DNA from: a virus
Taxonomy: Duplodnaviria > Heunggongvirae > Uroviricota > Caudoviricetes
Virus record (IMG/VR): IMGVR_UViG_2630968911_000001
Reading direction: 5' to 3' (one strand)
Length of the DNA: 4,896 nt
Shown here piece after piece: positions 19-4,896 of this stretch. Made by a program: the position numbers and the translations under genes. Position 1 is the first letter of the stretch; each line of letters opens with the position of its first letter. The notes under the pieces are model-generated. The model was not told where the DNA came from. It made no database searches and saw only the letters and a list, made by a program, of their open reading frames with translations.

Positions 19-723
19 CTATTGCTGGGTAAGATCAAAGGTTGAATCAGAACCTAGATATTTAATCTCTGGATTTTTTGCGTTACCAATAATTTCATAT
101 TTTGCTGGAAGCTCAATGTCTCTGGTCTTCATTCCATATATGCCAGAACCTTTCAAGTGAATTTTTCTTGCGCCTGAAGCGAATGCCTTCTGAAAGGCTA
201 TGCTATTATCTGTTTTTCCAGAATCATCTTTGCCACCAAAGTCTTCCAAAAATACAAAATCATCCAGCTTTTCTTGTACATTCCTGAAGACAGCACCATC
301 AACAACAGAAGGTAATCCATACTTATACTTTACTGTTTCAGGGAATGCCCCGCTTGCAAACTCTCCCTCTAGCTCATGCCGGAACTGGTCCGGGTCATAC
401 TTGAGAATGTTTGGATAGTAGAACTGCTGTGTGCCATATGCGTCATACACAGCCATTGAATGTCCCTGTACGGTAACGAACTTTGCAATCTGTCCGTTAT
501 ATACAGGGTAACCAGCGGCGTTAATGATGATTGGTTGCGAAACAGGAACGTGAGAGCCGTCTTCGTTCTCTACATAAACCTGAATCTGGTTTTCAGGATT
601 TGTCGGGTCAGTGTCAATTTTACCGATATAAATTTTGCCATTGGCAACCGCTTTAAAAGAACGCGCCATAGTGAAAAGTTGCGAAGGCATACTCACTACA
701 ACATTGGCTGTAATGTCTGTCAT
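19..723 (-). CDS. Tailspike protein, N-terminal head-binding domain (P22 gp9-like) plus start of a divergent receptor-binding domain; ends prematurely, so possibly a pseudogene or truncated gene
   Basis: The 234-aa ORF begins [40 protein letters not shown]...TVQGHSM...LKYDPDQ, which I recognise as the conserved N-terminus of P22-type tailspikes (full-length proteins are about 600-700 aa). [21 protein letters not shown] motif at aa 161-180 resembles the start of a pectate-lyase-like beta-helix. On the minus strand GGAG (732..735) sits 8 nt upstream of the ATG at 721..723. The ORF stops at TAG (19..21) and a second in-frame stop follows at 4..6. Confidence 0.8.
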
Positions 724-887: not shown

Positions 888-2885
888 CTATTCTGACAAC
901 GCATCAGACTTAACACCCTGCGTCATAGCGTTAATAGCCTTTTGTGCCTGCTGCATGGCTTTCTCAAACGCTGTTGATCCGCGTGGGGTATTTGCCATTC
1001 GTAGCATTGCATTTCTGAATGGCTCACTCTCATAGGCGCGAGCAAGAAGGCCGTAGCTTACTGCAGCGCCAGTTGTCGCAGGGTTCATTGCTGTCCCATA
1101 TCCGATAATGAACGGAATGGTTTGCTGACCTGTAGGAGTTGTTACTGCTGCTTTTGCTGCCTGCTGAGTGGACTGAAGGTAGTTTTTCAATCCTTTCAAA
1201 TAAGCGGCTTCCTGACCCTTAAATGTGATGCCAGTCTGGTTTTGCAGGATGTTAAGCTGCCGAAGGAACTGGTCAGGGGCTCCGCCTGATTTCTCCATCG
1301 CTTTTCCAATGATGCCATTGCGCATTTGCGCCCTGCCAACACGACCAACTGAGTTATACAGCGTCTTAATTTCCGATTTGTTCTTGCTGAATAGCATGTT
1401 GTTGACAACTTCCGGCGTCAGGTCTCCTTTCATGAGAACATTCTTCAGCCTGGTATTCTTTAGTTTCGCCGCTTCGTCAGCGTAGACGGCATTGGCCTGC
1501 TGATATTTACGGAGAGTATCGTTGCCAAGATTCTGACCAATGGCACCATTGATATCGTCGGTCATCGCCTTGTAAACACGTTGAATGGCGGCATCGGAAC
1601 GGTTTGGTAACACTGGTCGCTCCCCCTTCACATCCATTCTGAACTGGCTGCGCAGATCGCTTAATTGCTTCAAATCCAGATTTACCGGACCATCAGGGCC
1701 AGCATTGCGAACAAGCTCATCACGATATGACTGAAGTTTTGAAATTGTCTCGTTATCAGCTACCTTACCAAGCTTCTGCAGATTAGATATCTCAGTATCA
1801 ATCTGCTGAATTGCTCGCGCAGGCTGGATATTGACTCCCGCCATTGCATTCTGAACCTGCTCAAGACGGTTCCCTGCAGCACGACGAATTCCTGACGTTT
1901 TAGCTTTAAGGCTGTCAATAACAACCGCTGGATCATACTCACCGAATTTATCAGCAAATCTCTGCACCAACTGGCTTCTCGCTTCCTGTTGCGTTGCTCT
2001 CATTCCGCTTGTGCCAGCCAGAGGGATATTTTCTGCTGTAGTCTGCGCCATTTTTCCGACGCGGGAAGTTGGTTGTAACAGGTCTGTGGTGTGCAGAGGA
2101 ATTCCTTCACGCTCTGCAAATCTGATAGCCTGCTGCGCTTCTGGCGCGATAGCACCACGAACGCCACGATAAGCAGCACCTAATCCACGTCCAGCAGCGT
2201 TAATAGCACCGCCAGCAAGTACACCAACGCCTAAATCGGTGGCGAGTGCTTCCGCATCATCTTTCGCACTATTTGCAGCAAGTGATCCAACTGCGTTTTC
2301 TGCCAGAAGGCGAGTTGCCCCCTGAGCAATTCGACCAGCAAGTGTTGGTGCCTGTGCTGCCGCTCTCTCAACGCCAGCAGGAGTGAGGTAAGGCAATGCT
2401 TCAGCAAATACTCTTCCCTCTGTCGTTTGTGGAGTCAGCGCGCCTTGCTGAAGGCCAAAGTCCTGCTCTAATCCCTGCGTTGTTACTCGTGGAGCTGGTT
2501 GATATGTACCATCGCCAATGCCGAGTTTACCGCCAGCCCAAGCCGCCGCGCTTGTTACAGCATCGGCAACTGATGCAGGTATGTTTGCCACGTTCACGCC
2601 AGCCTGCACCAGTCCGCGACCTGTTTCTTTCGCGGCTTCACCAAGATCAGACATAAATCCACTTTGCTGTGGTTGTTGCTGTGATACTGGTTGTTGTATC
2701 TCCACTGGCTGCACAGATGGCAATGGATAGGCAGCATAGAAAGCTTGCTTAGCCTGCTCTGCATTTTCTCCGGCTTTCGGGGCCACGACTTCATTGAAGT
2801 ATTGCTCCTGAGCCTGCGCTTTTTGTTCTGGTGCTAACGCCTGATACTGTGGAGAGGCGATAACATCTTTCCATGCTTTAGCCAT
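888..2885 (-). CDS. Phage ejection (DNA-transfer / internal virion) protein, P22 gp16/gp20-like
   Basis: A 665-aa ORF sits immediately upstream of the tailspike in the same orientation, which is the position of the ejection proteins in P22-like genomes. It is Ala/Gln/Gly-rich with a Q/P-rich low-complexity linker (aa 57-76) and a Gly/Ala hydrophobic segment (aa 217-239). Its ATG (2883..2885) overlaps the upstream stop as TAATG, and a GGGGTGA Shine-Dalgarno-like sequence (2889..2895, minus) precedes it. The family assignment is by context and composition, not a verified alignment. Confidence 0.6.
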   Translation of the reverse strand: MAKAWKDVIASPQYQALAPEQKAQAQEQYFNEVVAPKAGENAEQAKQAFYAAYPLPSVQPVEIQQPVSQQQPQQSGFMSDLGEAAKETGRGLVQAGVNVANIPASVADAVTSAAAWAGGKLGIGDGTYQPAPRVTTQGLEQDFGLQQGALTPQTTEGRVFAEALPYLTPAGVERAAAQAPTLAGRIAQGATRLLAENAVGSLAANSAKDDAEALATDLGVGVLAGGAINAAGRGLGAAYRGVRGAIAPEAQQAIRFAEREGIPLHTTDLLQPTSRVGKMAQTTAENIPLAGTSGMRATQQEARSQLVQRFADKFGEYDPAVVIDSLKAKTSGIRRAAGNRLEQVQNAMAGVNIQPARAIQQIDTEISNLQKLGKVADNETISKLQSYRDELVRNAGPDGPVNLDLKQLSDLRSQFRMDVKGERPVLPNRSDAAIQRVYKAMTDDINGAIGQNLGNDTLRKYQQANAVYADEAAKLKNTRLKNVLMKGDLTPEVVNNMLFSKNKSEIKTLYNSVGRVGRAQMRNGIIGKAMEKSGGAPDQFLRQLNILQNQTGITFKGQEAAYLKGLKNYLQSTQQAAKAAVTTPTGQQTIPFIIGYGTAMNPATTGAAVSYGLLARAYESEPFRNAMLRMANTPRGSTAFEKAMQQAQKAINAMTQGVKSDALSE

Positions 2886-3511
2886 TAATCACCCCATAGT
2901 GAAGAAAAGTTACTGCCAGTAGTAGATTGTTGCCCTGGCATATTCTGCACCGGCTCCTGATAATCAAACTGTTTTTTAACAGTGCTCAACTTGCTTTCAA
3001 GCTGATTTCTAATCTTTCCGATAGAGTCACGAAAAGCCTTTTCACTCATTTTGGGGCTTAGGGCACCAACCGCATCGGATAATTTTTTACCCTCAGCATC
3101 TGAAAGAGCGCCCATACCCTTCAGGGACTGCACCATAGGAAGGAAAGTTTGAGCTTTAAAGGTGTCGAGCCTTGCTTCAAAGTTAGCCGCATCAGAGCCA
3201 GGAACTGTCGGAAACGCTGAGCGAATTCCTACTGCTTTTGAAAGGCCAGGGCTTTGCTCTATCTCGTTGAGAGAATCAAGCGCGGTGCTGAACGTATCAA
3301 CTGCACCCTGAGCAGCGGCCTGCCTGTCAGCGCGGGCTATGTCAGCCTTTTGCCGAACATCTGCCTGTTTCTGTTTTAGCTCTTCAAGCTTTAACTGATT
3401 GCTTTCTCTGGCTATTTGTCTGTCCAGAGCCTTTTCTTGTAATTCTGCTCTTTGTATTTCGCGGGAAAGAGCAGCATTCTGTGCGCTGATGTTCTGTCCA
3501 CGTAATGGCAT
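2885..3511 (-). CDS. Coiled-coil phage ejection-protein-like ORF, probably the 3' portion of a gene truncated at its 5' end (P22 gp20-like or gp7-like)
   Basis: The 208-aa ORF has a strongly charged heptad-like N-terminal half (REIQRAELQEKALDRQIARESNQLKLEELKQKQADVRQKADIARADRQ) and is translationally coupled to the downstream 665-aa gene. There is no convincing Shine-Dalgarno upstream of its ATG, and an in-frame stop lies only 4 codons upstream (3524..3526). Confidence 0.5.
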   Translation of the reverse strand: MPLRGQNISAQNAALSREIQRAELQEKALDRQIARESNQLKLEELKQKQADVRQKADIARADRQAAAQGAVDTFSTALDSLNEIEQSPGLSKAVGIRSAFPTVPGSDAANFEARLDTFKAQTFLPMVQSLKGMGALSDAEGKKLSDAVGALSPKMSEKAFRDSIGKIRNQLESKLSTVKKQFDYQEPVQNMPGQQSTTGSNFSSLWGD

Positions 3512-3552
3512 TGAGCAGGCAACTCACTGGATGCCACTACCGGAACCGCCGC

Positions 3553-3558
3553 AGGAGG
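3553..3558 (+). promoter_or_regulatory. Shine-Dalgarno (AGGAGG) for the ASCH-like gene
   Basis: AGGAGG is followed by a 6-nt spacer and an in-frame GTG at 3565. Confidence 0.6.
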
Positions 3559-3564
3559 TTAACC

Positions 3565-3849
3565 GTGGCTAACCTGCAACTTGCCGTCAAAGGTGAATAC
3601 TTCGATGCCATTATTCGCGGAGAGAAAACTGAAGAGTATCGCCTGTGTAATGACTACTGGAATAAGCGAATTATGTTCCGGGAGTATGACCGCCTGATTA
3701 TCACAAAGGGATATCCGAAGCGCGACGATTCCAGCCGCAGAATTGACGTCCCGTATGACGGATATGAAATCAAGACAATCACACATCAGCACTTCGGCGA
3801 TAAACCGGTAAAGGTGTTCGCGATAAAGGTGAATATCGGCAATGAATAA
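3565..3849 (+). CDS. ASCH/PUA-like domain small protein (YqfB-like fold), accessory early-left gene
   Basis: The listed ORF 3505..3849 has no ribosome-binding site at its ATG, whereas the in-frame GTG at 3565 has a consensus AGGAGG. The 94-aa product begins MANLQLAVKGEYFDAIIRGEKTEEYR, matching the N-terminal beta-strand and G-x-K-T motif pattern of ASCH domains (compare YqfB ...DDILAGRKTITIRD). Assignment is from motif recollection only. Confidence 0.55.
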   Translation: MANLQLAVKGEYFDAIIRGEKTEEYRLCNDYWNKRIMFREYDRLIITKGYPKRDDSSRRIDVPYDGYEIKTITHQHFGDKPVKVFAIKVNIGNE

Positions 3850-3850
3850 C

Positions 3851-3880
3851 AATCCTCGAACTCGCGGGGATTTCTTTTAT
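3851..3880 (+). terminator. Putative intrinsic terminator-like hairpin 1
   Basis: Stem 3853-3858 / 3865-3870 (tcctcg/cgcgggga, 6 bp including one G-U), a 6-nt loop, then the U-rich run tttcttttat (3871..3880). It starts 4 nt after the ASCH stop codon. Confidence 0.35.
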
Positions 3881-3883
3881 CTG

Positions 3884-3908
3884 AACTCGCTACGGCGGGT
3901 TTTGTTTT
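3884..3908 (+). terminator. Putative intrinsic terminator-like hairpin 2
   Basis: Stem ctcgc (3886..3890) / gcggg (3895..3899) with tetraloop tacg, extendable by A-U pairs, followed by ttttgtttt (3900..3908). It is an imperfect direct repeat of hairpin 1 (gaactcgc...GGG...TTTnTTTTAT). Confidence 0.45.
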
Positions 3909-3921
3909 ATGGAGACAAGAA

Positions 3922-4266
3922 ATGTCAGATTTGGCTATGAAGGTTTTGAAATGGCAATCGACTGGCGATGTCGGCATCAGTAGCGCAACTCTTGCCTCAA
4001 TCGCATGTGGACTGAAAAAGAATATCTATGGTCATCACTTCGGCGCTCCCCATGACGCAGCAGATTTCCGGCGATGCGTTGCGCTTGTTGAGCAGATTAC
4101 AGAAATCAGAGATTCATTCGACAAGGTTGCAAAGCGCGTTCCGGCATTCAAAGGAATCCTCAACGAATGGGATTCCCTCGTTGCTCTGTTGAAGTCTGAA
4201 ATGAAGATACACGGAAACAAAGCACCAGAGACTTACAGAAGAATCAGCGAGCTACGCAAGGACTAA
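3922..4266 (+). CDS. Hypothetical protein (114 aa), accessory early-left gene of unknown function
   Basis: ATG at 3922 is preceded by GGAG (3911..3914). The ORF runs to TAA at 4264..4266 in the same orientation as the flanking genes. I recognise no family; there is a C-x7-HH-x4-H-x7-C spacing at aa 29-51. Confidence 0.55.
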   Translation: MSDLAMKVLKWQSTGDVGISSATLASIACGLKKNIYGHHFGAPHDAADFRRCVALVEQITEIRDSFDKVAKRVPAFKGILNEWDSLVALLKSEMKIHGNKAPETYRRISELRKD

Positions 4267-4269
4267 CCC

Positions 4270-4288
4270 GCCTCACACTCGATGAGGC
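4270..4288 (+). other. Short GC-rich hairpin between the hypothetical gene and xis
   Basis: gcctca (4270..4275) pairs with tgaggc (4283..4288) around the 7-nt loop cactcga. No strong U-tract follows (ctgtacatttctc). Confidence 0.25.
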
Positions 4289-4353
4289 CTGTACATTTCT
4301 CAAGATATCCAGACCTACCGCAATCATGTCAATCCAATAAATGGAGATTCCAG

Positions 4354-4701
4354 GTGGAAGAAGAAATCTTCACTCGTGAAGAAGCTGCGTCGTATCTGAA
4401 GGTAGACAAAGGCACTATCACACAGTGGATACGAAGTGGACGACTTCAGGCCGCAAAGATAAATCCAGATAAACCTAAAAGTCCATATCGCATTTGCAAG
4501 TCAGACTGCATTGCGGCGCTTAAGTCTGTGAGACACAATAGCGCGGTGAATGCGGTTGATGTGCAGGAGGTTAAAGCATGTCAATCAAACTACGCGGTGG
4601 CACGTGGCACTGCGATTTCGTCGCGCCAGATGGATCAAGAGTTAGACGCTCTCTTGAAACATCGGACAAAAGGCAAGCGCAAGAACTTCACGATCGTCTA
4701 A
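4354..4701 (+). CDS. xis: Excisionase-family helix-turn-helix DNA-binding protein (Xis/AlpA-like)
   Basis: An in-frame GTG at 4354 is preceded by GGAG (4343..4346). The product contains TREEAASYLKVDKGTITQWIRSGRLQAAKI, a typical excisionase-type HTH, and sits immediately upstream of the integrase gene. The listed ATG at 4282 lies inside a hairpin with no ribosome-binding site. The 3' end is uncertain because the frame overlaps the int start by 124 nt. Confidence 0.6.
   Translation: MEEEIFTREEAASYLKVDKGTITQWIRSGRLQAAKINPDKPKSPYRICKSDCIAALKSVRHNSAVNAVDVQEVKACQSNYAVARGTAISSRQMDQELDALLKHRTKGKRKNFTIV
4565..4570 (+). promoter_or_regulatory. Shine-Dalgarno (AGGAGG) for int
   Basis: AGGAGG is followed by a 7-nt spacer and ATG at 4578. 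Confidence 0.6.
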
Positions 4702-4896
4702 AAGCAGAAGCGTGGAGAGTAAAAAATCTCGGGGAATCACCGAAAAAGCTATTCAAGGAAGCCTGCATACGGTGGCTGCGTGAGAAATCGGATAAGAAGT
4801 CCATTGATGATGACAAGAGCATTATATCGTTCTGGATGTTGCACTTCAGAGAAACCATTCTCTCAGACATAACAACAGAAAAAATAATGGAGGCGG
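4578..4896 (+). CDS. int: Tyrosine recombinase / phage integrase, N-terminal region (partial; 3' end beyond the window)
   Basis: This frame is open from ATG 4578 to the window edge and is missing from the ORF track only because it has no stop inside the window. The translation MSIKLRGGTWHCDFVAPDGSRVRRSLETSDKRQAQELHDRLKAEAWRVKNLGE... matches the conserved N-terminal arm-binding region of lambdoid and P22-type integrases as I recall it. It has a strong ribosome-binding site and xis immediately upstream. Confidence 0.8.
   Translation, partial: MSIKLRGGTWHCDFVAPDGSRVRRSLETSDKRQAQELHDRLKAEAWRVKNLGESPKKLFKEACIRWLREKSDKKSIDDDKSIISFWMLHFRETILSDITTEKIMEA

Follow-up and report, generated by a model that had tools for sequence, protein, structure and literature searches.

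Two small genes at 3565-4266 of a 4,896-nt stretch of DNA (hereafter the window), directly upstream of an excisionase and an integrase gene, raise the question of whether they belong together as one functional unit or merely lie side by side. A preliminary description of the sequence had treated them as a two-gene cassette, consisting of an ASCH/PUA-like protein and a 114-aa partner of no recognisable family, and had suggested that the two may function together. Both open reading frames, at 3565-3849 (94 aa) and 3922-4266 (114 aa), are real genes with widespread homologues, and both are under strong purifying selection (dN/dS = 0.08 and 0.06, respectively; 66 distinct alleles for each). Also as described, they lie in an accessory location of lambdoid/P22-like type, and xis and then int follow the second gene. 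Their joint function did not hold up. We consider it probable that the two genes are separate, individually mobile accessory genes of a lambdoid/P22-like pL operon, not a pair, and that they are carried as probably silent passengers in a prophage remnant at thrW.

The window corresponds to positions 3619151-3624046 of the E. coli G4/9 chromosome (NZ_CP060073.1) with two base differences from the RefSeq sequence, at positions 215 (T/G, within a tailspike fragment) and 4099 (A/C, within the 114-aa gene). The tailspike gene is interrupted by an IS3 element, the end of which occupies positions 1-37, as judged from the IS3 transposase coding sequence directly to the left of the window in G4/9 and from intact tailspike homologues, which align only from base 38; we take these 37 bases to be the IS3 inverted repeat. 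Three late-gene pieces follow on the minus strand: the N-terminal fragment of a P22/Sf6-type tailspike with its head-binding domain (38-723; Pfam Head_binding, E = 6e-68; a pseudogene in RefSeq), a 665-aa DNA-ejection protein of the Sf6 gp13/P22 gp16 type (888-2885), and an ejection protein of the Sf6 gp12/P22 gp20 type without its N-terminus (2885-3504; 'missing N-terminus' in RefSeq). The pieces are approximately 94% identical in DNA to Sf6 genes 12-14, and this homology ends at 3504. Within the tailspike fragment, identity to Sf6 stops near 382 (window 368-386), at the boundary of the head-binding domain, while other E. coli prophage tailspikes still align down to base 38; this pattern is the usual swap of head-binding versus receptor-binding modules. 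The truncated ejection gene resembles an intact 208-aa open reading frame owing to a minus-strand ATG at 3511-3509. This ATG lies beyond 3504, antisense to a DUF551 gene fragment, in DNA that was joined on at a deletion junction. RefSeq labels the same pseudogene 'acyltransferase', which looks like a mis-annotation.

From approximately 3502 onwards the DNA resembles that of HK022, 933W and other lambdoid phages in their early-left accessory regions, so that positions 3502-3504 mark a deletion junction between late ejection genes and early-left accessory genes of one prophage (Sf6-type homology ends at 3504, 933W/HK022-type ea homology begins at about 3502). The first feature beyond the junction comprises the last 22 or so codons of an EaA-like DUF551 gene (3505-3572, plus strand; matches to phrog_60 and phrog_924; RefSeq pseudogene 'DUF551, missing N-terminus'). 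Its tail, HWMPLPEPPQEVNRG followed by the stop codon, is common to full-length genes at other loci and carries the ribosome-binding site of the next gene. The plus strand thus holds, in this order, the DUF551 end, the 94-aa gene, the 114-aa gene, xis and int, followed in G4/9 by a tRNA-Thr gene (thrW) outside the window. Starting from thrW, one reads att, int, xis and accessory genes, then, across the junction, ejection genes and tailspike. This order matches the map of an integrated P22-like prophage and points to one deletion, from an eaA-like gene to a gene-20-like gene. The window represents a P22/Sf6-like prophage, now decayed, at thrW of E. coli G4/9. A single deletion fused the gene-20-like ejection gene to the final 22 codons of the eaA-like gene and removed the immunity region, pL and about the whole phage interior. 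Neither the deletion nor the resulting absence of pL had been recognised in the preliminary description.

Deletions of this kind recur. An independent prophage remnant near sbcB/dacD in E. coli PSJ-16 (NZ_AP027632.1; positions 8492-11303 of the locus L171) carries a similar one, in which a gene-20-like ejection gene, itself truncated, runs into a short C-terminal piece of the ASCH gene, followed by the 114-aa gene, an HTH gene and an integrase gene.

The 94-aa gene (3565-3849, plus strand) starts at GTG 3565, six bases after an AGGAGG at 3553-3558, and the 114-aa gene starts at ATG 3922, preceded by GGAG at 3911-3914; strong ribosome-binding sites had been noted for both. RefSeq gives identical coordinates for the 94-aa gene. 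At the position of its start, GTG, ATG or TTG is found in all 80 related loci, where it overlaps the upstream stop codon as (G/A/T)TGGCTAA; the start is thereby fixed, and a longer 114-aa reading from ATG 3505 is ruled out. The gene upstream varies among loci, and only its last few codons (...QEVNRG and the stop), which overlap the ribosome-binding site, are common. An obligate pairing with an upstream DUF551 (EaA-like) gene was rejected on these grounds, and the 5' edge of the 94-aa gene is a recombination junction rather than a partnership. The gene is homologous to HK022 gp34, and its product, a basic protein (pI 8.7), belongs to phrog_625, a PHROG without assigned function.

The assignment of this protein to the ASCH family was examined by fold, profile and motif. 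The PUA-like beta-barrel with flanking helices is present, in agreement with the earlier reading of the protein as ASCH/PUA-like, and the barrel fold and an octapeptide are shared with known ASCH proteins (PF04266; E. coli YqfB, T. thermophilus TthASCH, human EOLA1 and TRIP4). The protein is divergent, shorter than typical members, however, and phage-borne, and its sequence support is marginal: it reaches 18.8 bits against PF04266, below the gathering cutoff of 21.2, with similarity confined to 23 residues (6-28). Among 32 homologues, 17 reach E <= 0.1 for the same model. NCBIfam gave no match, and sequence and profile searches of the PDB gave chance matches only, with no significant match to a solved ASCH protein. 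Alignment to YqfB with hhalign, for which an approximate YqfB query was used, covered 15 residues at a probability of 0.1%.

The octapeptide GxKxx[E/T/S]xR, as defined in a bioRxiv preprint (10.64898/2026.02.27.708502), is present as G19-E-K21-T-E-E24-Y-R26, and G19, K21, E23, E24 and R26 are invariant in the 32 homologues, which range from Escherichia to Pectobacterium. Glu24, at octapeptide position 6, places the protein in the Glu-type ('GKER') subgroup and not with the Thr-type YqfB, which has Thr at this position. According to the same 2026 preprint, Glu-type ASCH proteins remove N4-acetylcytidine (ac4C) from tRNA, an activity for which Lys and Glu of the octapeptide are essential (10.64898/2026.02.27.708502). 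For YqfB-type enzymes, which are ac4C nucleoside amidohydrolases, roles have been described for Thr24, Glu74, His70 and Tyr89 (PMC6972931). By analogy with the Glu-type proteins, the phage ASCH protein possibly binds or deacetylates ac4C in RNA. No other concrete activity suggests itself for this protein.

The second gene (3922-4266, plus strand) is ORF114 of phage 434 and gp32 of HK022, an identity that the preliminary description had missed. Its DNA is 96% identical to HK022 and 93.6% to 434 (M60848), and its product matches phrog_1229 over the full length (residues 1-114, E = 1.2e-50). The protein is basic (pI 9.2) and, in an AlphaFold2 model with a pLDDT of 93.7, all-helical with seven helices. 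It lies outside curated families, as had been stated, with no match in Pfam, NCBIfam or PADLOC, and with chance matches only in sequence and profile searches of the PDB. A word-seeded search found 63 clusters of close relatives, and an exhaustive profile search extended the family to 2779 clusters at E <= 1e-3 and to 602 at 1e-10 (clusters at 50% identity). When 64 diverse members, which share 29-59% identity with the query, are aligned, residues S20, P43, D45, D48, R51, C52 and W83 are invariant, and the family shows the motif h-P-x-D-P-x-D-F-x-R-C. None of the 64 members matches a Pfam model, and the only PHROGs they match are of unknown function. The A/C difference at 4099 changes Pro60 to Thr in the window relative to the G4/9 RefSeq protein, at a position that is Pro in at least 90% of the 64 members. 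This change would fit relaxed constraint but may just as well reflect a difference between strains or in sequencing.

Distant members of the ORF114 family are found in phage early operons, 3' of ERF, RecT or DUF3799 recombination genes, with DNA methyltransferases and a Lar-type restriction-alleviation gene among the neighbours. One of them is immediately followed by a small gene and then an integrase gene, and for many family members the surrounding 4 kb contain no integrase. Fusions include a tandem duplication, N-terminal zinc ribbons, a recurrent N-terminal domain of about 80 aa, and a single CCA-adding enzyme. The recurrent architecture of about 190 aa (P0386, P0393, P0402, P0403, P0411, P0414, P0419, P0428 and P0431) combines the conserved N-terminal domain (VVLGFGPQ..DFFSK..CG..AV.D.D.ARMAGA.FA.G) with an ORF114-like domain; at one locus (L164) such a gene follows a DUF3799 exonuclease gene with a 4-nt overlap and precedes an AAA_15/AAA_23 ATPase gene. 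The CCA-adding enzyme fusion (P0291, 558 aa, on a Logan contig of 1891 bp) consists of a PolyA_pol head, an RNA-binding and an HD part, and a complete C-terminal ORF114-like domain (451-538). In a different phage contig (L169), an RtcB RNA ligase gene lies approximately 3.4 kb upstream of a family member. The fusion and the RtcB neighbour, each a single observation and the former possibly a gene-calling fusion, hint weakly at tRNA biology. Kinship of ORF114 with GlnD, CCA-adding enzymes or HD domains, suggested by this fusion and by one JGI name (P0404), was rejected, as Pfam at E <= 10 was empty for P0404. ORF114 is a conserved early-operon protein and, by analogy, is likely to have a host factor or nucleic acid as its binding partner.

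The spacer between the ASCH gene and ORF114 comprises 72 nt and contains two hairpins (3851-3872 and 3883-3902, plus strand), each followed by a T-run, in accordance with the terminator-like hairpins first noted there. The spacer folds with a z-score of -2.9, and the scan of 3300-4700 detected three terminator-like sites where 1.2 are expected. Both hairpins are conserved base for base in HK022 and 434, where tL4 is annotated, which identifies 3851-3902 as this tandem intrinsic terminator. A hairpin at 4270-4288, after ORF114, lacks a T-run, and its region shows no folding stability beyond that of shuffled sequence (z = -0.08); an equivalence to the t'I terminator annotated in 434 was thus ruled out. 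In HK022 and 434 the order is ASCH, tL4, ORF55, ORF114, xis and int, with a further hairpin between ORF55 and ORF114. ORF55 is absent from the window, where ORF114 lies directly 3' of tL4. It is missing exactly: the break falls inside the ribosome-binding sequences of ORF55 and ORF114, TTTTATGGAGA and TTTTATTGGAGA, which are nearly identical, and the alignment with HK022 and 434 reveals a ribosome-binding site, TTTTAT(T)GGAGA, shared at the excision point. The variant without ORF55 is common, being found in 13 of 55 evaluable IMG/VR ASCH loci.

The co-occurrence of the two genes was evaluated in IMG/VR, in complete E. coli genomes and across species. The IMG/VR samples were the 80 closest relatives of each gene (out of 528 ASCH and 353 ORF114 loci) and are redundant in lineage. 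ORF114 was present in 21 of the 55 ASCH loci with enough downstream sequence and absent from 34; the ASCH gene lay upstream of ORF114 in 20 of 78 loci and was missing from 58, in which ORF114 was preceded by a DUF551 gene, ORF55 or other genes. Of 5426 complete E. coli genomes, 1735 contained ASCH DNA, 963 contained ORF114 DNA and 210 contained the two as a contiguous pair. A one-genome-per-species collection supplied 13 ASCH loci from 12 species, none of which had an ORF114-family profile match within 3.5 kb, and no ASCH gene was found in the loci of distant or unrelated ORF114-family members, except for the truncated remnant in E. coli PSJ-16. The ASCH gene occurs in more than 500 clusters across Enterobacterales, as compared with the 63 clusters of close ORF114 relatives. 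The two genes thus assort independently and are not a functional pair. Their mostly separate occurrence, together with the short conserved junctions, indicates that each is a mosaic module of its own, as is usual in lambdoid phages.

These data bear directly on the proposal that the ASCH and 114-aa proteins form a module acting together, for example as a sensor of RNA or modified bases with an effector or partner. Such a module would account for two small, basic proteins encoded next to each other on the same strand, and for the same arrangement in the 210 E. coli genomes and in 13 of 55 IMG/VR ASCH loci. Tight physical or translational coupling is absent, however, with a double terminator between the genes and a third gene between them in HK022 and 434; most copies of either gene are solitary, no ORF114 relative accompanies the ASCH gene across species, and the clusters of the ASCH gene far outnumber those of close ORF114 relatives. 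The co-occurrence data largely refute the two-gene module, which we regard as very improbable. A toxin-antitoxin pair was likewise rejected, given the lack of overlap or coupling, the terminators between the genes and the lack of co-occurrence. About a fifth to a third of loci carry both genes, and in these the products may interact facultatively.

An excisionase (matches to phrog_2907, HTH_17 and TIGR01764) is encoded at 4354-4701 on the plus strand, in an open reading frame annotated from 4282. Residues 25-139 of this frame cover the phrog_2907 profile (117 positions) end to end, so that the true start of xis is probably GTG 4354, before which a GGAG lies at 4344-4347. The frame 4282-4701 overlaps the integrase start by approximately 124 nt, and this long xis/int overlap is probably a family trait. 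The 5' part of the integrase gene occupies 4578-4896 on the plus strand, with thrW just beyond in G4/9; RefSeq places its start at 4584, and an ATG with an upstream AGGAGG is found at 4578. A crude consensus scan of 3300-4700 returned no sigma-70-like site, with 1.7 expected by chance. With pL deleted and no such promoter in this interval, both genes are probably silent passengers in G4/9; weak promoters or opposite-strand read-through across the junction could still give some expression. Their retention would be explained by their position next to int at the prophage end.

Taken as two independent accessory genes, the ASCH gene and ORF114 would derive from the non-essential 'exo-xis/ea' stretch upstream of xis-int. 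An intact phage would transcribe both from pL as delayed-early genes, and antiterminated polymerase would read through the tL4 double terminator into xis and int, as the annotated maps of 434 and HK022 suggest. By analogy with other Glu-type proteins, the ASCH protein would bind RNA and may remove the N4-acetyl group from tRNA cytidine, while ORF114 may bind a host factor or nucleic acid and so modulate early infection. In E. coli, ac4C is found at the wobble base of elongator tRNA-Met. Removal of ac4C by the ASCH proteins of temperate phages may retune translation early in infection, or protect it. We see only a low probability for the stronger form of these ideas, namely that the phage ASCH protein is an eraser of ac4C on host tRNA that serves early-infection translation, or that ORF114 represents a very large family, lacking a solved structural relative and marked by an invariant Ser/Asp/Asp/Arg/Cys constellation, with a new nucleic-acid or host-factor activity.

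Two other readings assign the genes a role in the lysogen or in phage development. One or both might be morons expressed from the prophage, which would benefit the lysogen by defence or superinfection exclusion or would act as counter-defence during infection. Morons are likewise small accessory genes, flanked by terminator-like hairpins and variably present in related phages, and the region adjoining xis-int is, in the exo-xis literature, a classic accessory slot. ORF114 has a terminator upstream, has been kept in two independent prophage remnants (G4/9 and PSJ-16), and has distant homologues near DNA methyltransferases and the Lar-type gene. However, the upstream terminator is tL4 of the operon and not a moron terminator, the downstream hairpin at 4270-4288 is non-significant and without a T-run, and no promoter-like site was found upstream of either gene in the crude scan. 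Survival of ORF114 in the remnants is explained by its proximity to int at the prophage end, and in the window copy a nearly invariant proline is replaced by threonine (P60T). The PADLOC defence-protein models gave no match at E <= 1 for either protein, by which a known defence system was ruled out, and with pI values of 8.7 and 9.2 neither protein is acidic, which makes a DNA-mimic anti-restriction role unlikely. Overall, expression as morons appears unlikely.

A modulation of the lysis-lysogeny decision or of integration and excision, as known for Ea22, Orf60a, Orf61 and Orf63 of the lambda exo-xis region, would fit the shared operon segment and the position of ORF114 immediately upstream of xis in 434, HK022, the window, PSJ-16 and a distant phage (L174). 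Yet neither gene has homology to any characterised exo-xis protein, ORF114 stands beside at least two unrelated xis/int types, and many members of its family lack a nearby integrase. We therefore rate a developmental role of this kind as distinctly unlikely, and retain two independent pL-operon accessory genes as the best explanation.

Comparison with annotated phages places both genes in a known segment of the pL operon. In the pL operon maps M60848 and AF069308, as in the window, ORF114 lies between tL4 and xis. The window gene and 434 ORF114/HK022 gp32 ('N15 early protein homolog', PHROG 1229) are the same gene in length and in position between tL4/ORF55 and xis; the window differs by the absence of ORF55, an xis-int of another type, and P60T. 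HK022 reads erf-abc-ea22-like ... gp35-gp34(ASCH)-gp33-gp32(ORF114)-xis-int, and only ORF55 has a lambda homologue in its annotation. The lambda exo-xis genes (orf60a, orf61, orf63, orf73, ea22, ea8.5 and orf55) occupy the same segment between recombination genes and xis and are non-essential, mosaic and delayed-early. The ASCH gene and ORF114 are unrelated to them in sequence or fold, and lambda itself carries neither. By location between recombination genes and xis and by variable presence among loci, the two genes are lambdoid exo-xis/ea accessory genes; the upstream part of this region is deleted in the window.

Profile searches did not assign a housekeeping phage function to either protein. 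Such an assignment would have spoken against the preliminary description, as would a lack of the ASCH fold, which is present. No published function for the ASCH gene or ORF114 was found in the literature searched, including by accession and PHROG id, and the lambda exo-xis literature treats neither. Both genes are already catalogued: they are RefSeq-annotated, have widespread near-identical copies, and have been on the 434/HK022 maps since about 1990. Between a sixth and a third of complete E. coli genomes have them, and as a genomic feature they carry little weight. The ORF114 family, with its 2779 clusters, confident predicted fold and lack of a Pfam model or structural neighbour, is a clean target for characterisation, and the locus is a tidy example of prophage decay in which the att-proximal end genes are retained.

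The surroundings of the window in G4/9 (a 20000-bp region inspected from its position 1) contain further prophage DNA. To the left, beyond the IS3-split tailspike gene, lie gtrA/gtrB-like genes, followed by a second xis-int pair in unintegrated (attP-like) order. Farther left, a decayed lambdoid prophage carries exo/bet/gam, ren, rusA, quuD and lysis genes, together with two more IS3 copies. The thrW region of G4/9 thus has the appearance of two decayed prophages arranged in tandem.
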